From: an uncultured Acidobacteriota bacterium
GTDB taxonomy: Bacteria > Acidobacteriota > UBA6911
NCBI GenBank assembly: GCA_963843575.1
Contig: CAWJKZ010000010.1
Coordinates: 416,001-480,000 of the forward strand
Reading direction: 5' to 3'
Length of the DNA stretch: 64,000 nucleotides
Each line of letters opens with the position of its first letter. The stretch's first letter is position 1. Under the pieces are notes generated by a model. It was given only the letters and a program-made list of their open reading frames with translations, ran no database searches and was not told the DNA's origin. Below, piece after piece: positions 10,167 through 15,387 of the stretch. Both the position numbers and the translations under genes were made by a program.

Positions 10167-10789
10167 AAGTCCTCTCTCTCCTGGAGATGCTTCAGGACCG
10201 GGGCTTCGCCCTGCATCAGCCGAGGCAACACGTGCTCATCCAGGAGCCGGTACCAGGCCGCGCGCCGGAGACTTGCGTCCGGATAGCGCGCTTTCAGAAA
10301 GCCGCGCAGGCCGGCTAAGTCTTCGAGAACCTCCCCGAAAGGTTCTCCGAGAATGCCGCCCAGACAGTCCCGAATCCTGGAAGCGAACGCCGGGGCGGCA
10401 CCGGAAGTCGATACCGTGACGACGAGGTTGCCGCGGCGCAGCACGGCGGGAAAAATGAAGTCCGAATGCAGGGGATCATCGACGATGTTGACCAGGACGT
10501 TGCGGCTCCGCGCACAATCAAAGATCTCCCGGTTGACCGCGGGGTCGTCGGTCGCCCCCACCACGATCCACATCCCATCGAGGTCGGCAGGGACGAATCC
10601 CCGCCTCTCCCACGACACGCCGACTCCCCGGATCAGCTCCTGCACAGGATCGGTGAGCTGCGGGGCAATCACCCGGACACGAGCACCTCCCTGAAGAAGG
10701 GCGCGGATCTTCATGGCCGCCGCGACGCCCCCGCCCACGACAAGCGCCGACCGTCCGTCGAATTTCAGGTGTACAGGATAAAGATCCAT
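10163..10789 (-). CDS. Precorrin-2 dehydrogenase / sirohydrochlorin ferrochelatase (CysG N-terminal type)
   Basis: YPVHL, Rossmann VVGGG, ATDD, VNIVDDP, VSTSGAAP. ATGA overlap with cobA. Confidence 0.92.
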   Translation of the reverse strand: MDLYPVHLKFDGRSALVVGGGVAAAMKIRALLQGGARVRVIAPQLTDPVQELIRGVGVSWERRGFVPADLDGMWIVVGATDDPAVNREIFDCARSRNVLVNIVDDPLHSDFIFPAVLRRGNLVVTVSTSGAAPAFASRIRDCLGGILGEPFGEVLEDLAGLRGFLKARYPDASLRRAAWYRLLDEHVLPRLMQGEAPVLKHLQEREDL

Positions 10790-10790
10790 A

Positions 10791-10829
10791 AAACGAAAAA
10801 CCCGCCACCTGCTCAGTGGCGGTGGCGGG
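10791..10829 (-). terminator. Intrinsic terminator of attenuator A
   Basis: Minus strand CCCGCCACC-loop-GGTGGCGGG followed by TTTTTCGTTTT, directly before the ATG at 10789. Confidence 0.85.
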
Positions 10830-10858
10830 CTCAGGAGTGTCGTTGATGTGTGCCTGGT

Positions 10859-10939
10859 TTAGACTGCGCCTTCCGCCACCCGGAAACCGCGCAGCGTGCA
10901 ACAACAGGCGCAGATCATGTTCGAGCGGCGGAGAACCAT
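10859..10939 (-). CDS. Cys-rich leader peptide A (MVLRRSNMICACCCTLRGFRVAEGAV), probably leaderless
   Basis: Four Cys in five codons. ATG begins 7 nt after a -10 box. Followed by a terminator upstream of the siroheme genes. Confidence 0.8.
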   Translation of the reverse strand: MVLRRSNMICACCCTLRGFRVAEGAV

Positions 10940-10945
10940 GCGAGA

Positions 10946-10974
10946 TTTATACCGCGCCACCCGTGCCCTGGCAA
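10946..10974 (-). promoter_or_regulatory. Sigma70 promoter for the siroheme operon
   Basis: TTGCCA-N17-TATAAA on the minus strand. Confidence 0.75.
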
Positions 10975-10990
10975 GCCGAATGTGTAGTGT

Positions 10991-11010
10991 ATCTAATCCT
11001 CGGATTAGAT
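10991..11010. promoter_or_regulatory. Palindromic putative operator between the divergent promoters
   Basis: ATCTAATCC-tc-GGATTAGAT, perfect 9-bp inverted repeat. Confidence 0.6.
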
Positions 11011-11015
11011 GATCG

Positions 11016-11044
11016 TTGACATCCGTCGCGGGCGCTGTTAGTCT
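11016..11044 (+). promoter_or_regulatory. Sigma70 promoter for the sulfite reductase operon
   Basis: TTGACA-N17-TAGTCT with an extended -10 TG. Confidence 0.78.
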
Positions 11045-11128
11045 TCGTCCCAGGATATACATTTGGACGGAGAGCGTCCCTTGGCAGCGAAAGCGACTGG
11101 AACCCGGACTGAAAAGAACGCGGCGGGA

Positions 11129-11206
11129 ATGACGGGGTTTGCCTGTTGCTGCATCTGTCGCGTGCCCGGGAACCGGTCTCTCGTCCATGAGACAATTGAG
11201 CCTTAG
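11129..11206 (+). CDS. Cys-rich leader peptide B (MTGFACCCICRVPGNRSLVHETIEP); alternative in-frame TTG start at 11081
   Basis: Four Cys in five codons. Contains GGAACCGG, complementary to the 5' arm of the downstream terminator. Confidence 0.8.
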   Translation: MTGFACCCICRVPGNRSLVHETIEP

Positions 11207-11227
11207 CTCAAGGCCATCATTGGGACG

Positions 11228-11266
11228 AAAAAGCCCCGGTTCCTTCGAAGGAACCGGGGCTTTTTT
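11228..11266 (+). terminator. Intrinsic terminator of attenuator B
   Basis: AAAAAGCCCCGGTTCCT-TCGA-AGGAACCGGGGC-TTTTTT in the 5' leader of the sulfite reductase gene. Confidence 0.92.
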
Positions 11267-11323
11267 ATTTTGGGGCCGTTCAAACCCGAAAGACCAGGGG
11301 CCTTTCAGCTTCGAGGAGACCTG

Positions 11324-13507
11324 ATGCGCGACGCGAGTCTGGAGATTGCCCGGGACCGCGGTTTGGGCCTAACCGACACAGTGCGCGAGGAATTGGATGT
11401 TTACGAAGAGCTGATCCGGAAATACCGCGCCGGCCAGGTCGACGAAACCAAAATGCAGAAACAGCGGCTGCATTTCGGCACGTACGCGCAGCGCCAGGAA
11501 GGCGTGCAGATGCAGCGGATCAAAATCCCGGGCGGGCGCCTCACTTCCTGCCAGCTCGGTCGCCTTGCAGACGCGGCGGATCGTTTCGCCAGCGGGTTCA
11601 TTCACTTCACCACGCGCGAAGACGCGCAGATCTACTATGTCAAGCTCGATGAAGTACCTGCTCTTCTTCGTTTCCTGGCCGAGGCCGGCATCACGACCCG
11701 CGAAGCCTGCGGCAATACCGTCCGCAACATAACCTGCTGCTACCGTTCGGGCACGACCAAAGATGAGGCTTTCCCGGTGGCGCCGTACGCCGAAGCGCTC
11801 TTCCGTTATCTGGTCCGAAACAGGTACAACCAGAATCTCGGGCGCAAGTTCAAGATCACCTTCGAAGGCTGCACCGAAGACCACTCGCACCTGCGAATTC
11901 ACGACATCGGGCTGCTCGCCCGCCAGCGCCCCGATGAACACGGCAACGTCCAACGCGGATTCCGCATCTGGCTCGGGGGCGGCCTCGGGGCGGCTCCGCA
12001 GGTCGGCTTGCTCTATTGCGACTTCCTTCCCGAAGACGAGCTGTTCAACGTGGTCGCCGCAACGCTGCGTCTGTTCGATCGATACGGGGAGCGCAAGGCC
12101 AGGATGAAGGCGCGCATGAAATTCCTCATTCAGACCATGGGATGGGACCGATTCCGCGAGGAACTCGAGGCCGAGCGCATGCGCATGGGACCCGTCGACC
12201 TCCTCCCGGAATATCTCGCGGAAGCGCGCGACGTCGTTCCTCCTCTGACGGAACCGGATGCGGGATTCCGGGTGCTGGAGGGCCGCCTCGACGACGCCTC
12301 CTTTACCAGGTGGGTGCAGGACTCCGCTATCGAACACAGGATCCCGTGGCTTCGCGGCGTGCACGTACGCCTCAAAATGGGGGACATAACCGCGGAACGC
12401 GCGCGCCGTCTGGCGCTTCTGGCGCGCAGATTCTCGGCGGGAGAACTGCGGATCTCCATCGAGCAGAACATCTATTTCCCGTGGGTTTCCGCGGACGCTC
12501 TCCCCGACCTGTACGACGGTCTGGGCGAATTGTCGCTGGCCGATCCGGGCGCGGAGACCGTCGAAGACACGACGACCTGCCCGGGAGCCGATACGTGCAG
12601 GCTTGGCATTGCTTCAGCGAAAGGCCTGGGCAGCGTCATCTCCGAGGCCCTGACCGGCCCGGGGACCGCGCATCGCGAACTTGCCCGTTCGCTGCGTATC
12701 AAGGTCTCCGGCTGTCCCAACGGGTGTGCTCAACACTCGATTGCCGACGTCGGATTCCAGGCAGCGGCACTGAATCACGAAGGTCGTACGGTGCCGGCCT
12801 ATCTCGTGTCGGTGGGAGGAAGAGCAAATCTCGACGACGCCGAGTTCGGCCGGCTGATCGGGCGAATTCCGGCAAGGAACGGGGTGCCGGCCCTGCAGGC
12901 ACTCCTCGATCTGTTTAGTCGAGAGAAACTTCCGAACGAGACCTTCGGCAAGTTTGTGGACCGAGTGGGAGAGACCACTTTGAAAGCGGCGCTCGAGCCG
13001 TTGAAACACGTTCCGGCTTATGCGGAGGACCCGTCGTATTACGAAGACTGGGGACATGAGAACGAGCGTTTCGCCGTGCGGCAGGGTGTCCGGGGCGAAT
13101 GCGCCGGTGCGACAGTCGCAGAAACCGTGCCCACGATCGCGGCGGCGTGGGAATGGCTCGCCCAGGCGCGTGCCTTTTTGTATCACCAGGAGTACAAGTC
13201 GGCAGCCCTGGCCGCTTACGAGGCGGCCGCGTGTGCTGCCCGCGTTCCGCTGTATCAGCGTCTCGTCGATCCATTCACTTCGGATCAGGCTCTTTGGGAA
13301 TTCGAGAACATCTTCGTGCTGTCCGGCATGACGGGGGACGAGTGGAAAGATATCTCGAATTGGTTCGAGAGTCGGAAAAACCGGACGGCGGACGATGGGT
13401 CCGCTCGCGAAATTCTGGGTGGGGCGCAGCGACTGATCGAGTACTGTGCCTCATTCAACGAGGCGTCGCCGAAACCGGTGTCGCCCCCCGCAGGTGCGGG
13501 ACTGTAA
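11324..13507 (+). CDS. Siroheme/4Fe-4S sulfite (nitrite/sulfite family) reductase with C-terminal helical extension
   Basis: MQRIKIPGG, HFTTRED, CGNTVRN, TCPGADTC, SGCPNGC. GAGGAG RBS. Adjacent to cysH and siroheme genes, so sulfite is the likely substrate. Confidence 0.93.
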   Translation: MRDASLEIARDRGLGLTDTVREELDVYEELIRKYRAGQVDETKMQKQRLHFGTYAQRQEGVQMQRIKIPGGRLTSCQLGRLADAADRFASGFIHFTTREDAQIYYVKLDEVPALLRFLAEAGITTREACGNTVRNITCCYRSGTTKDEAFPVAPYAEALFRYLVRNRYNQNLGRKFKITFEGCTEDHSHLRIHDIGLLARQRPDEHGNVQRGFRIWLGGGLGAAPQVGLLYCDFLPEDELFNVVAATLRLFDRYGERKARMKARMKFLIQTMGWDRFREELEAERMRMGPVDLLPEYLAEARDVVPPLTEPDAGFRVLEGRLDDASFTRWVQDSAIEHRIPWLRGVHVRLKMGDITAERARRLALLARRFSAGELRISIEQNIYFPWVSADALPDLYDGLGELSLADPGAETVEDTTTCPGADTCRLGIASAKGLGSVISEALTGPGTAHRELARSLRIKVSGCPNGCAQHSIADVGFQAAALNHEGRTVPAYLVSVGGRANLDDAEFGRLIGRIPARNGVPALQALLDLFSREKLPNETFGKFVDRVGETTLKAALEPLKHVPAYAEDPSYYEDWGHENERFAVRQGVRGECAGATVAETVPTIAAAWEWLAQARAFLYHQEYKSAALAAYEAAACAARVPLYQRLVDPFTSDQALWEFENIFVLSGMTGDEWKDISNWFESRKNRTADDGSAREILGGAQRLIEYCASFNEASPKPVSPPAGAGL

Positions 13508-14292
13508 TGAGTGAATCGCCTACTCCACACGAAATCCGCGAAGAACACCAGGTTCTCGTGGCAGGTCGTGTTTTGACTGGAGAAACTGCCTTGCCCGAAC
13601 AGCAGACGAGCTCGTTGTCGCTCTCCGAAAAAGTCGAGATCAGCAAGACCATCATCGAATATGCCATCAGCAAGCACCCGCGTATTTTTGCCGCGTGCTC
13701 CTTCGGCAAGGATTCCCGAGTGATTGTGGATCTTGCGGCGCAGGTTCGTCCGGAGATCCCGTTCATAGGCATCGACACCGGCTACGAATTCCCGGAAACC
13801 CTGGCGTATGCCGACGAGCTCGTGCGCCAAACCGGCGTACGCTTCCGGTGGGTGCGGCCATCGGACGAAGCGCGCCGCAGGATCGACGAACAGTACGGCG
13901 ATTCGTTCATCAGGAACGATCAGTACAAGTGCTGCGAGATGAAGATCCCGGCGATCGAGGGGATCCTGGCGGAATACGACGCCTGGATCACGGGTCTGCG
14001 GCGCGACGAAACCGAATATCGTAAGAATACGAGACTGATCGAGGCGGGAAGGGTCGCCAAGGTCAATCCCATCGCCTTCTGGAACAAGGAGGACGTCTGG
14101 AACTACATCAGCGGCAATGGTCTGAGTTATCACCCGCTGTATGACCTCGGTTATACCTCTCTCGGCTGCAAGCCCTGCACAACCGGCGGCAGAGTTCGTT
14201 CCGGTGGTGGCAGGCAGGGCCAGTTTGAGAGAGCAGGACGCTTCGCGGGCACATCCAATCAGGGACAGGAGTGTGGACTGCATCTGATCTGA
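13507..14292 (+). CDS. cysH: APS/PAPS reductase (4Fe-4S APS type)
   Basis: CSFGKDS, DTGYEFPET, CC and CxxC ligands, TGLRRDE, terminal ECGLH. TAATG coupling to the upstream gene. Confidence 0.93.
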   Translation: MSESPTPHEIREEHQVLVAGRVLTGETALPEQQTSSLSLSEKVEISKTIIEYAISKHPRIFAACSFGKDSRVIVDLAAQVRPEIPFIGIDTGYEFPETLAYADELVRQTGVRFRWVRPSDEARRRIDEQYGDSFIRNDQYKCCEMKIPAIEGILAEYDAWITGLRRDETEYRKNTRLIEAGRVAKVNPIAFWNKEDVWNYISGNGLSYHPLYDLGYTSLGCKPCTTGGRVRSGGGRQGQFERAGRFAGTSNQGQECGLHLI

Positions 14293-14519
14293 CCCGCTCG
14301 GACAAGCGGGATCAGCCTTCGAGGAGGGCCGACGATCCTGCGGCCGCAGGAACCGCGCGCGGCCTGTTTGGGCCGTGGCCGAGAGGAGGCCGACGTCGAC
14401 CACCCGCGCCAGCGCGGTCTGGAGTCCCGCCCCCCAAGCCTGGCGAGCCTCTGGAAGAGCCACGTCGAAGCTCGTCTGGTTGGGCGGGGAATGCAGGGTC
14501 CAGCGCAAGCCGGACAGGG

Positions 14520-15119
14520 TCACTTCAAACTTGGAGCGATGAAGGCGTTCAACAAGGGAAACGACAATCCTCCCACGACGCGCTGCTCCTTGCCCTCCAT
14601 CGTGACGAAAAATGTGGGGGTCGACACCACGTTTCTCTTCTTGCCCAGGGCGATTTCGCGATCAATCGTCTCCTGGATCGCCTGGTCCTTCAGTCTTTCT
14701 CTCACCTTTTCCATTTCGCCCGGCGTAAGAACGCGGGCAACCACGCGATCGATGTTACCGTCGAAAGCCCATTCTGCCTGACAGGTATAGAGATATCTGA
14801 TGACTTTGATGAGCTGCTCTTGACCCAGGCCCGCGCACGCCACAGCGTAAGTGCTTGCGATCCTGGAGGATGCATGCACGGGAAGCGGAAGCTCGTGGAA
14901 AATGACCGCCACCTTGTTGCCGGAAGAGTACCGGTCCAACAGCGGGTCGACAGTGTCGAGATAAAACGTGCGGCAGGCCGGACACTCAAAATCCGAGAAA
15001 ATTTCGATCCTGACAGGGGAGTCGGGCCTGCCCATAAGATAATTCCCGGGAGCGTCGGTGCGGGTCGCTTCCACCGCCGGTTGTACCATGACCAGGAGTG
15101 CCAGCACGATCCAACTCAT
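14520..15119 (-). CDS. DsbA-family thioredoxin-fold oxidoreductase
   Basis: Signal peptide, FSDFECPAC, cis-Pro loop STPTFFV. Confidence 0.9.
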   Translation of the reverse strand: MSWIVLALLVMVQPAVEATRTDAPGNYLMGRPDSPVRIEIFSDFECPACRTFYLDTVDPLLDRYSSGNKVAVIFHELPLPVHASSRIASTYAVACAGLGQEQLIKVIRYLYTCQAEWAFDGNIDRVVARVLTPGEMEKVRERLKDQAIQETIDREIALGKKRNVVSTPTFFVTMEGKEQRVVGGLSFPLLNAFIAPSLK

Positions 15120-15387
15120 CGCGGTTCCTCTCCTCTAGAGATCGCTACAGGGTCCTCTTAACTGATAACACGTTTTGCCGCGACGGTGTATGCCGTTTGT
15201 CAGGCGGCCTGTCGCCAGGTCGATCTGTGGGGATCCGCGCGCATCCGCGTCCTGACAAATACGTTGGCGTATTTGTGAACATCAGTACTTTGTGAGGACG
15301 CAGCTTGTCGTTGTGCCGCGTGGGGCAAGGAACCCGGTGGAACGGCCGACCCCCCGAGCACCCAAATCCTTCGAGGTGAGCCTCTCG

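Follow-up and report, generated by a model that had tools for sequence, protein, structure and literature searches.

A short leader between a predicted promoter (11016-44) and a sulfite reductase/PAPS reductase operon (11324-14292) of an uncultured soil bacterium of the phylum Acidobacteriota has the build of a classical ribosome-mediated transcription attenuator. We put the probability that it senses how much Cys-tRNA(Cys) is available, and controls the operon accordingly, at about 85%. All positions refer to the window, the whole 64-kb stretch of DNA that was analyzed. The leader contains a short open reading frame (ORF) between promoter and gene, a run of Cys codons, an intrinsic terminator and an antiterminator that uses the 5' arm of that terminator. 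These parts, their alternative folds, their conservation and the gene context were all worked out in silico. The main support comes from a parallel design in sequence-unrelated Cys leaders of other Blastocatellia.

Overall organization of the leader

The features of the leader, all on the plus strand, are as follows.

11016-11044, plus strand: predicted sigma-70-type promoter (-35 TTGACA at 11016-21, 17-nt spacer, -10 TAGTCT at 11039-44)
11065-11083, plus strand: small hairpin GGACG-GAGAG-CGTCC, displaying a Shine-Dalgarno-like GGAGAG loop (11069-74) followed by an in-frame TTG (11081-83)
11081-11206, plus strand: leader ORF, stop codon TAG at 11204-06, with Cys-run ORFs at the equivalent place in relatives
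11095-11107, plus strand: segment 1, candidate anti-antiterminator (GACUGG..CCCGG pairs with 11166-70 and 11173-78 in untranslated RNA)
11120-11161, plus strand: hairpin, predicted by folding, around ATG 11129 and the Cys codons
11144-11158, plus strand: regulatory codons TGT TGC TGC ATC TGT, four Cys within five codons
11169-11176, plus strand: segment 2, proposed 5' strand of the antiterminator, GGAACCGG, identical to part of the terminator 3' arm
11181-11228, plus strand: inner hairpin that stacks under the antiterminator and whose apical loop contains the leader stop codon
11233-11266, plus strand: intrinsic terminator (5' arm or segment 3, 11233-44; loop, 11245-48; 3' arm or segment 4, 11249-60; U-tract, 11261-66)

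The promoter was missed by a generic promoter scan because its -10 element matches TATAAT at only three of six positions. The pattern TTGACA-N17-18-TAnnnT, with a perfect TTGACA, nevertheless stands 5' of the Cys leader in 12 of the 13 related loci that we class as type 1, and the leader transcript would start near 11051. For 10780-11800, no public RNA run was listed. The hairpin at 11065-11083 is retained in a same-genus relative, where the loop reads GGAGAT and is again followed by an in-frame TTG. The hairpin at 11120-11161 could act as an RNA polymerase pause hairpin.

Depending on the start codon, the leader peptide is 47 amino acids (TTG 11063), 41 amino acids (TTG 11081) or 25 amino acids (MTGFACCCICRVPGNRSLVHETIEP, from ATG 11129) in length. 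The first-pass annotation had offered TTG 11081 as a possible real start; the in-frame TTG and the GGAGAG 6 nt upstream of it are present, and from the sequence its use as the start is plausible, with ATG 11129 as a rival. The latter is without good Shine-Dalgarno spacing. An in-frame start lies 17-21 codons ahead of the first Cys in 10 of the 13 related loci, and in two of the 13 (L035 and L059) the nearest is at least 15 codons upstream. ATG 11129, however, aligns with the proximal ATGs of other relatives, so that either codon may be the start. The Cys codons themselves are retained across relatives, with changes between TGT and TGC, and lie just 5' of the antiterminator strand, as had been claimed; the strand begins 10 nt past the last of them.

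The downstream operon and its divergent neighbor

Two genes follow the terminator.

11324-13507, plus strand: gene 1, sulfite/nitrite reductase family protein of 727 amino acids (Pfam NIR_SIR, 3.7e-52; NIR_SIR_ferr, 2.5e-32)
13507-14292, plus strand: gene 2, phosphoadenylyl-sulfate (PAPS/APS) reductase CysH (NCBIfam PRK02090, 181.7 bits against a cut-off of 154)

The start of gene 2 overlaps the stop of gene 1 (TAATG), and all NCBIfam matches to gene 1 fall under their curated cut-offs. With an NIR_SIR sulfite reductase and a PAPS reductase, the pathway served by the operon is cysteine synthesis. The Shine-Dalgarno sequence of gene 1, GAGGAG at 11313-18, is 47 nt past the terminator and does not pair with any leader sequence in the MFE structure, so that translational masking of the reductase is unsupported.

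The divergently transcribed genes encode the two halves of sirohaem synthase and have a Cys leader and terminator of their own (10939-10796, minus strand), whose ATG comes 7 nt after a TATAAA. Sirohaem synthase makes the cofactor of sulfite reductase. Both leaders flank a single intergenic region of 535 bp. Both strands of the 6.68-Mb assembly were scanned for at least three Cys in at most five codons, with a stop no more than 45 codons and a terminator no more than 200 nt away; this returned 11 matches, two of which are those flanking this intergenic region. A looser preliminary scan gave 36 matches and missed the minus-strand leader, which has a long stop-to-stop frame. Three of the 11 matches (L030, C13 -193232; L032, C12 -196468; L033, C13 +597235) were set aside as chance because they are inside longer frames or lack a plausible start, with no cysteine-related gene after them.

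Terminator and proposed antiterminator are alternative folds

The terminator is a 12-bp stem of G+C pairs, GCCCCGGUUCCU (11233-44) with AGGAACCGGGGC (11249-60), followed by six U residues (11261-66). It has a predicted energy of -31.3 kcal/mol, and an A-tract at 11228-32 extends the stem. None of 200 shuffles of the region was equally good (z = -5.1).

The long helix proposed in the first-pass annotation could be reconstructed in every part. GGAACCGG at 11169-11176 is the exact complement of CCGGUUCC at 11236-11243 (in DNA letters, CCGGTTCC). The extensions are UCGUCC (11181-86) with GGACGA (11223-28) and AUGA (11187-90) with UCAU (11217-20), and the cap is formed by UUGAGC (11196-11201), CUUA (11202-05) and GCUCAA (11206-11), spanning the TAG at 11204-06. 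As also claimed, this helix excludes the 12-bp terminator stem, since 11236-43 is common to both. The inner hairpin has an energy of -19.9 kcal/mol alone and forms in the terminator conformation as well.

We folded the RNA that a stalled ribosome would leave free, placing the A site on each of the four Cys codons and starting the RNA just 3' of the ribosome. When the nascent transcript ends at 11243 or 11250, its MFE structure is exactly the long helix (-33.3 to -35.5 kcal/mol), in agreement with the earlier proposal that a stalled ribosome frees the antiterminator. The MFE structure of the full-length transcript contains the terminator (-97.7 kcal/mol versus -76.6 kcal/mol with the helix forced). 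The terminator conformation is thus favored over that of the antiterminator by about 20 kcal/mol, and read-through therefore requires a kinetic trap.

Judged from this one sequence, the case for the 8-bp helix against chance is only moderate and borderline: the duplex that the post-Cys segment forms with the terminator 5' arm was equalled by 32 of 500 dinucleotide shuffles, and the pairing of that arm with the first 20 nt of ribosome-freed RNA by 11 of 200. Segment 1 is moderately supported as an anti-antiterminator. Its pairing with 11166-78 is present in the MFE structure of the untranslated transcript and was equalled by 24 of 500 shuffles. Across 13 loci, an upstream partner of the antiterminator strand is found 14-68 nt from the predicted transcript start (at most 57 nt away in 12 of them and at 57-68 nt in L069), and five of the 13 are individually below 0.05 in a shuffle test.

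Proposed mechanism

We infer the ribosome footprint sizes, the folding kinetics, the pausing and all of the physiology in the scheme that follows. Transcription would begin near 11051 and the leader ORF would be translated by a ribosome. When cysteine is scarce, the ribosome would stall on the four Cys codons with its leading edge at about 11157-11169. GGAACCGG would then be free to pair with CCGGUUCC once the latter has been transcribed, stacked on the inner hairpin; as the terminator 5' arm is then occupied, RNA polymerase would continue into the operon. With plentiful cysteine, the ribosome would reach the TAG in the apical loop and unwind the inner hairpin. Sitting between the strands of the 8-bp helix, it would allow the terminator hairpin (11233-60) to form, and transcription would stop at the U-tract.

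A ribosome at the stop codon covers about 11189-11216, which is inside the loop, and leaves GGAACCGG uncovered. Termination at cysteine sufficiency is therefore a steric and kinetic argument and not one of simple masking, with the ribosome presumably preventing the antiterminator sterically. If the leader is not translated, the upstream complement at 11095-11107 probably holds GGAACCGG, so that termination would be the default state.

Conservation in related loci

All 13 type-1 loci retain the Cys run, the 8-bp helix in register and the terminator, and it is this conservation in register that takes the helix beyond chance. Of the 104 cells of the helix alignment 96.2% are paired, compared with 14-71% when the partner is slid by one to three columns. 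RNAalifold, applied to the ribosome-freed stretch of these loci, returns exactly these eight pairs (103 of 104 cells paired). The motif GGRACCGR occurs in all 13, either 10 or 16 nt past the last Cys codon, and four same-family relatives whose sulfite reductases are 62-85% identical retain GGAACCGG together with the Cys run and the terminator. Outside the genus, conservation of the long helix is limited to its 8-bp core; the sequence of the inner hairpin (UCGUCC/GGACGA and so on) is kept only within the genus, and a different hairpin takes its place in other genera.

Covariation supports the terminator, with 88.5% of cells paired in the 13 loci, 10 double-change cells and a score reached by none of 500 shuffles. 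The score for the 8-bp helix in the same loci is not above that of shuffles (reached by 442 of 500). Its columns are nearly invariant, with one double change (G-C to A-U, in L059) and one A-C mismatch (in L057), and the invariance could be due in part to the coding of an N/D-R-S/F motif. A metagenome scan added only three type-1 loci, two of them identical to L004 across a 160-nt leader stretch, so that covariation of the helix stays weak.

Parallel leaders in other Blastocatellia

The same design recurs in Cys leaders that are unrelated in sequence. In L069, in the type 3 leaders and in the minus-strand leader at 10939-10796, the segment after the Cys codons copies the leader's own terminator 3' arm. 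The terminator of L069 is quite different (GCCCGCUAUCG/CGAUAGCGGGC) and is accompanied by a matching leader segment (CGAUAGUGGGC), a match equalled by 0 of 500 and 1 of 200 shuffles. In 23 of 26 leaders examined, the MFE structure pairs 6 nt or more of the terminator 5' arm with a partner near the edge of the stalled ribosome, that is, starting within 8 nt of the leading edge with the ribosome on the last Cys codon. Tested against shuffles over 11 sequence-distinct lineages, failures included, the post-Cys complement gives a Fisher's combined p of 0.006. The long leader types L036, L041, L056 and L058, together with L038, have no significant post-Cys complement to a terminator arm.

Of 52 genome loci, 20 have a Cys-run ORF with a terminator 5' of the sulfite reductase gene; of 80 metagenome loci, 63 do. 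The combination is present in 10 of the 11 genome loci labeled Blastocatellia or Pyrinomonadaceae, in none of the nine labeled Gemmatimonad- and in none of the six labeled Vicinamibacterales. In other Blastocatellia, leaders of this kind also precede a CysI-type reductase and a PLP-enzyme/JAB pair. A covariance model (R1) searched against 137 genomes of the class hit 26 genomes at E <= 0.001, with only eight full-length matches; eight of 11 further loci that we inspected proved to be ordinary terminators after genes.

Alternative explanations

The leader might respond to cysteine without the 8-bp GGAACCGG:CCGGUUCC helix being the working antiterminator, control being exerted instead by a different pairing, by Rho or transcription-translation coupling, or by a nascent N/D-R-S/F peptide that arrests the ribosome. 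Such a scheme draws on the near-invariance of the helix columns, because of which covariation cannot separate RNA pairing from coding constraint, on the motif itself, which all 12 loci sharing the frame encode as N/D-R-S/F, and on the exposure of GGAACCGG when the ribosome is at the stop codon. A peptide motif, however, can hardly explain why unrelated Cys leaders copy their own terminator 3' arms. The fixed distance of the strand from the last Cys codon (10 or 16 nt) and the emergence of this very helix as the MFE structure of ribosome-freed RNA also argue for the pairing, and we consider control without the helix unlikely.

A riboswitch, or an attenuator that binds a protein or tRNA, would be independent of translation of the short ORF and would make the Cys codons incidental; we find this very improbable. 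Alternative terminator and antiterminator folds do exist whatever is translated, and ATG 11129 lacks a well-spaced Shine-Dalgarno sequence, but an in-frame Cys-codon run with start and stop recurs in at least five leader families that share no other sequence. There is also no large conserved structure resembling a ligand pocket, as conservation is confined to the 8-bp helix and the terminator, and no Rfam family, the Thr, Trp, His and Leu leaders, T-box and SAM riboswitches included, matches the 64-kb window at its gathering threshold. Of the 30 sub-threshold Rfam matches within 10750-11340, most overlap one or the other terminator hairpin; the best, PyrG_leader (30 bits against a threshold of 65), covers the terminator hairpin only. 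Slightly less probable still is that the short ORF stands alone as the gene of a small Cys-rich peptide, such as a metal-binding peptide, and that the terminator belongs to this gene while the operon has another promoter. The promoter, the ORF and the strong terminator do together resemble a complete small gene. The peptide, however, is poorly conserved outside the Cys run and N-R-S, with variable length and stop position, and the reductase gene of several relatives starts only about 20-25 nt past the terminator, which leaves no room there for a second promoter. The association with cysteine-pathway genes (two sulfite reductase types, sirohaem synthase and a PLP enzyme) likewise fits a regulatory role better than a peptide product.

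Comparison with known attenuators

Classical leader-peptide attenuators control the trp, his, leu, thr, ilv and pheA operons of Proteobacteria. The leader described here shares with them an ORF with a run of codons for the amino acid of its own pathway, a terminator before the first gene, an antiterminator that uses the terminator 5' arm and, probably, an upstream 1:2 pairing. It differs in that cysteine is sensed, in the sulfite and PAPS reduction operon that it precedes and in its phylum, Acidobacteriota. The regulatory codons are upstream of segment 2 instead of within segment 1, the leader stop codon is within the loop closed by the antiterminator, and there is no sequence or Rfam relationship to the classical leaders.

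Cysteine sensing of related kinds is in print as translational control in mycobacteria and as a predicted motif before cysS in Rhodobacterales. Mycobacterial polycysteine leaderless sORFs sense cysteine by ribosome pausing (Canestrari et al. 2020, bioRxiv 10.1101/834739), and several cysteine-pathway operons per genome, each with its own sensor, form a 'ribulon' (bioRxiv 10.1101/834739). The Acidobacteriota leader is similar in having an upstream short ORF with a run of Cys codons, and is unlike them in its canonical intrinsic terminator and in a reductase Shine-Dalgarno sequence that is unpaired with the leader. Nor would it be leaderless, as 36 nt separate the end of the predicted -10 (11044) from TTG 11081, and 84 nt separate it from ATG 11129. 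The motif uORFC-8-2, a predicted ribosome-mediated attenuator 5' of cysS in Rhodobacterales (Brewer et al. 2021, PMC8632094), likewise combines conserved Cys codons with a terminator stem and U-run. It is described as having two tandem Cys codons before a tRNA synthetase gene, in alpha-proteobacteria only, a description that sets it apart from the Acidobacteriota leaders with their 4-9 Cys codons before biosynthetic genes. Comparative genomics of Actinobacteria identified Cys-rich candidate leader peptides 5' of cys operons (Seliverstov et al. 2005, PMC1262725). These are also short ORFs with Cys-codon runs before cysteine biosynthesis operons, but they are without a conserved terminator hairpin, and Rho was put forward by the authors, while terminator and antiterminator are explicit and conserved here.

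Cys leader attenuators from Acidobacteriota did not turn up in the literature searched, whose reach ended short of Russian-language attenuation surveys. The same literature yielded no classical, terminator-based leader-peptide attenuator of a cysteine biosynthetic operon, cysteine being among few such amino acids. The principle is textbook; its application to cysteine in Acidobacteriota is new relative to the literature searched.

Implications for sulfur regulation in Acidobacteriota

We give even odds to a broader proposal, that Blastocatellia and some other Acidobacteriota run the whole assimilatory sulfur pathway as a termination-based 'Cys ribulon' in place of a CysB-type transcription factor. 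If this is true, the leaders would be independent and repeatedly re-invented, each with a terminator and a post-Cys copy of its 3' arm. Their targets would include two types of sulfite reductase, sirohaem synthase, a cysteine-synthase-like PLP enzyme with its JAB partner and a beta-carbonic-anhydrase-like gene, and the 535-bp intergenic region described above would contain two such sensors, arranged back to back. The phylum is abundant in soils and difficult to cultivate, and its RNA-level regulation is almost unexplored. If our reading of the leader is true, it would provide a marker, readable from sequence, for cysteine-regulated genes in uncultured members of the phylum, several independent natural designs of one switch with which to compare the evolution of attenuators, and a compact cysteine-responsive part of about 220 nt.

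Architecture of the leader and its divergent neighbor

Re-reading of the sequence from 11016 to 11266 bears out the layout that the first-pass annotation had drawn for the Cys-codon leader, whose elements are listed here together with the flanking genes.

Features of the two leaders and adjoining genes
11016-11044, plus: predicted promoter, with -35 TTGACA (11016-21), a 17-nt spacer and TAGTCT (11039-44)
11065-79, plus: small hairpin GGACG-GAGAG-CGTCC, followed by TTG at 11081
11129, plus: ATG, candidate proximal start
11144-58, plus: regulatory codons TGT TGC TGC ATC TGT
11169-76, plus: candidate antiterminator strand GGAACCGG
11181-11228, plus: inner hairpin, with the in-frame TAG stop (11204-06) in its apical loop
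11233-66, plus: terminator preceded by an A-tract, stem GCCCCGGUUCCU (11233-44)/AGGAACCGGGGC (11249-60), loop UCGA, six U (11261-66)
11324 (ATG), plus: gene 1, NIR_SIR/NIR_SIR_ferr protein of 727 aa, SD GAGGAG at 11313-18
13505-09, plus: TAATG, where the start of gene 2 overlaps the gene 1 stop; gene 2 is a PAPS/APS reductase (PRK02090, 181.7 bits, above cut-off)
10974-10946, minus: predicted promoter, -35 TTGCCA (10974-69) and -10 TATAAA (10951-46)
10939-10859, minus: second Cys leader, MVLRRSNMICACCCTLRGFRVAEGAV
10830-10796, minus: terminator, with arm GCCCGCCACC (10830-21) opposite GGGUGGCGG (10881-73)
10789-10163, minus: sirohaem synthase, N-terminal half
10166-9339, minus: sirohaem synthase, methyltransferase half

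Read from ATG 11129, the leader peptide is MTGFACCCICRVPGNRSLVHETIEP (25 aa); begun at TTG 11081, which had been suggested as a possible real start, it is 41 aa. The TTG has the better Shine-Dalgarno, and 10 of the 13 loci with related leaders (type-1) have a distal in-frame start 17-21 codons before the first Cys, with the distal start being the nearest one in L035 and L059. Against this, ATG 11129 aligns with the proximal ATGs of several relatives. The distal-start pattern and the Shine-Dalgarno favor TTG 11081, with ATG 11129 still a candidate, and as the two share a frame the logic of the switch is independent of the choice.

The 535-bp intergenic region holds two back-to-back promoter/Cys-ORF/terminator units, one facing the sulfite-reduction genes and the other facing genes for the cofactor of sulfite reductase. 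The minus-strand unit (10974-10796) is, judged from its sequence, a second, divergent Cys attenuator. Its ATG at 10939 lies only 7 nt past the -10, so that its mRNA may be leaderless, and its U-tract (10800-10796) directly precedes ATG 10789 of sirohaem synthase. Genomes G001, G008 and G009 retain this unit; in G003 the sirohaem gene is instead downstream of the reductase in the same operon. Conserved columns of the reductase (11324-13507) extend to about residue 708 of 727 in a seven-row alignment, far past the domain stretches reported by Pfam. A 296-aa ORF (14271-15161) shares 22 nt with the 3' end of the PAPS reductase gene; it has no Pfam or NCBIfam match, and the attenuated operon may include it as a third gene.

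Mutually exclusive folds of the leader RNA

The segment 11120-11270 folds into the inner hairpin and the terminator at -71.7 kcal/mol (z = -5.1, 0 of 200 shuffles as good). Because 11236-43 is the exact complement of GGAACCGG, which also copies part of the terminator 3' arm, the antiterminator helix and the terminator are mutually exclusive. We folded the RNA that a ribosome would leave free, beginning just past a ribosome with its A site on any one of the four Cys codons (assuming a footprint that reaches ~12 nt past the first base of the A site) and extending to 11243 or 11250. In every case the minimum-energy structure (MFE) is exactly the long helix that the first-pass annotation had proposed, composed of the 8-bp stem, a 2-bp step, UCGUCCAUGA/UCAU..GGGACGA and a UUGAGC/GCUCAA cap (-33.3 to -35.5 kcal/mol). 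When the 3' arm and U-tract are added the terminator wins (full transcript -97.7 versus -76.6 with the helix forced), and the antiterminator would therefore have to act as a kinetic trap. The antiterminator of the trp attenuator is likewise a kinetic trap.

When the transcript is folded untranslated, 11095-11107 pairs with GGAACCGG and the sequence on either side of it (11166-78). Across the 13 type-1 loci the distance of such a complement from the predicted transcript start is 14-68 nt: twelve loci have it within the first 57 nt and L069 at 57-68. This segment overlaps or adjoins a distal in-frame start codon. Compared with shuffles it falls below 0.05 individually in 5 of the 13, and the combined p = 1e-5 is overstated because the loci are related.

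The antiterminator helix compared with chance

On the window sequence by itself the helix is only moderately beyond chance: 32 of 500 dinucleotide shuffles pair the post-Cys segment with the 5' arm as well, and 11 of 200 reach the window's number of arm nucleotides paired to the first 20 nt that the ribosome leaves free. In an alignment of the 13 type-1 loci, 96.2% of the 104 cells of the 8-bp helix are paired, versus 14-71% with the 3' partner slid 1-3 columns, and RNAalifold run on the ribosome-freed stretch only returns exactly the same 8 pairs (103/104 cells paired). The helix columns hardly vary, and their covariation score is matched by 442 of 500 shuffles; the last pair is G-C in five loci, G-U in five, A-U in one and unpaired in two. 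The terminator covaries: it has 10 double-change cells, a score that none of 500 shuffles attains. What is retained of the long helix across relatives is its 8-bp core, present in the 13 loci; the inner helices recur only in the same-genus relative, and other genera have a different hairpin in their place. The gap between the last Cys codon and the strand is 10 nt in the window, L034 and L057, 12-13 nt in L069, and 16 nt in the remaining type-1 loci.

A stronger argument for the helix, beyond the alignment, comes from leaders that lack sequence likeness and yet share one build. In L069, whose terminator is GCCCGCUAUCG/CGAUAGCGGGC, CGAUAGUGGGC is placed twelve nt after the last Cys codon, and its pairing is equaled by 0 of 500 shuffles in one comparison and by 1 of 200 in the other. 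In type-3 leaders (..CCCMCMCCPFSERSECMP), GAGCGG.GCG.GU pairs with AC.CGC..CCGCUC around the TAG stop in 18 sequences. The window's minus-strand leader, in which GGGUGGCGG faces the arm GCCCGCCACC, is kept in three other genomes, 5' of the same sirohaem gene. Altogether, in 23 of 26 leaders the MFE pairs 6 nt or more of the terminator 5' arm with a partner that begins no more than 8 nt from the front of a ribosome positioned at the last Cys codon. Individual values against shuffles are modest; Fisher's combination gives p = 0.006 over 11 sequence-distinct lineages, a set that includes the failures L036 and L038, which lack this pairing altogether, and L041, L056 and L058, which are no different from shuffles.

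Metagenome loci L120-L199 and loci L036-L058 contain at least three other Cys-leader families before relatives of the same reductase: ..CCCMCMCCPFSERSECMP, with terminator GCCGCUC; ..CCCMCMRSMRMAC.CMCR.SP, with terminator CUCUYGCGCUU; and a long-leader family (35-50 aa, 5-7 Cys, WQQ(R/T)T..G motif). An antiterminator was sought in the latter two and not found. In the leader type of loci L064, L065 and L077 (also L010 = G011) the Cys codons form two clusters and the end is conserved (MHS..Q.CCC....MCC..L/IR(M/T)AEA..HCGG); UUCGAA.GGC after the second cluster complements the terminator arm GCCCUUCGAA ~100 nt away.

Distribution of Cys leaders

Reductases 62-85% identical to the window's occur in one same-genus genome and three genomes of other genera in the same family, placed in a named genome collection among Acidobacteriota, Blastocatellia, Pyrinomonadaceae. 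All four have, 5' of the reductase, a Cys-rich short ORF, GGAACCGG (the same-genus relative has GGGACCGG in its place) and a terminator with arm CCCCGGUUCC. Among 52 loci with a reductase relative, 22 carry a Cys-run ORF in the 500 nt before the gene, 20 of them with a terminator (eighteen found by script, that of L047 visible on inspection of its leader, that of L065 found separately). The combination is present in 10 of 11 Blastocatellia or Pyrinomonadaceae loci, 7 of 19 unspecified Acidobacteriota, 2 of 3 Terriglobia (the upstream sequence of the remaining one is only 40 nt long), 0 of 9 with Gemmatimonad- labels, 0 of 6 Vicinamibacterales and 1 of 4 with other labels. It also precedes the reductase relative in 63 of 80 metagenome loci from soil and other sources, whose Cys-run leaders form at least four families.

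A scan of the window's assembly (6.68 Mb) required at least three Cys in a stretch of 5 codons, a stop no more than 45 codons away and a terminator no more than 200 nt away. It gave 11 matches over both strands, two of which are the pair in the 535-bp intergenic region. A third credible Cys leader there, MGCSSFMAGLLSCICCSCGELYLPGG, has a terminator ending in nine U and lies 5' of a beta-carbonic-anhydrase-family gene; it maps to contig C25, minus, ~302178 (L031:3565-3725, minus), 25 nt before the Pro_CA gene. A type-1 covariance model found full-length matches in 8 of 137 genomes of the class, and through these more Cys leaders, which precede an NIR_SIR reductase of another type (L099), a gene that is CysI-like by eye in its first residues (L101, which ends just past the start) and a PLP-dependent enzyme with a JAB-domain neighbor (L114). 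The L114 leader (G063:C1:2320922-2321064) contains nine Cys codons (VCVCCCCCCCTKLV...); after it come a terminator and then PALP and Prok-JAB genes. The PALP enzyme looks cysteine-synthase-like by eye, and the pair may resemble CysM/Mec-type cysteine synthesis.

In G008, an extra short ORF with Cys codons at its end (MSLRSRVFEVNPSVHTASRCCCIS; L035:3669-3743) lies between the reductase and PAPS reductase genes, has no visible terminator, and may be a translational sensor or have arisen by chance. The terminator-reductase spacer of this genome (L003/L035, oriented ~1440-1495) has ~8 copies of heptamer-like repeats, CAATCGT/AAATCGT; nothing like them is present in the window.

Proposed mechanism and relation to known attenuators

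The reductase SD has no pairing with leader RNA in the fold, and control therefore looks transcriptional rather than translational. The 8-bp helix would form before the 3' arm emerges, delaying terminator folding long enough, and a ribosome at the stop (~11189-11216) would melt the inner hairpin, sit between the helix strands and in that way keep the helix from forming. We infer a melting or steric step on the stop side because a ribosome there leaves GGAACCGG itself uncovered. The segment 11120-61 may act as a pause hairpin. With anatomy, exclusive folds, conservation and gene association shown in silico, we consider the element a Cys-sensing transcription attenuator with a probability of about 85% on comparative and folding grounds; we are somewhat less confident that the 8-bp helix itself is the working antiterminator.

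Earlier work describes candidate Cys leader peptides that lack terminators in Actinobacteria (PMC1262725), polycysteine leaderless short ORFs acting on translation in mycobacteria (10.1101/834739; cited so in PMC13236596), and in Rhodobacterales the uORFC-8-2 motif before cysS, with two Cys codons and a terminator (PMC8632094). Full-text literature searches returned no Cys leader attenuator reported for Acidobacteriota, and Rfam has no family matching the element. As its design is that of classical amino-acid attenuators, we regard it as an addition to that class: the kind of switch is already known, and the Cys case in Acidobacteriota is, by these searches, new.
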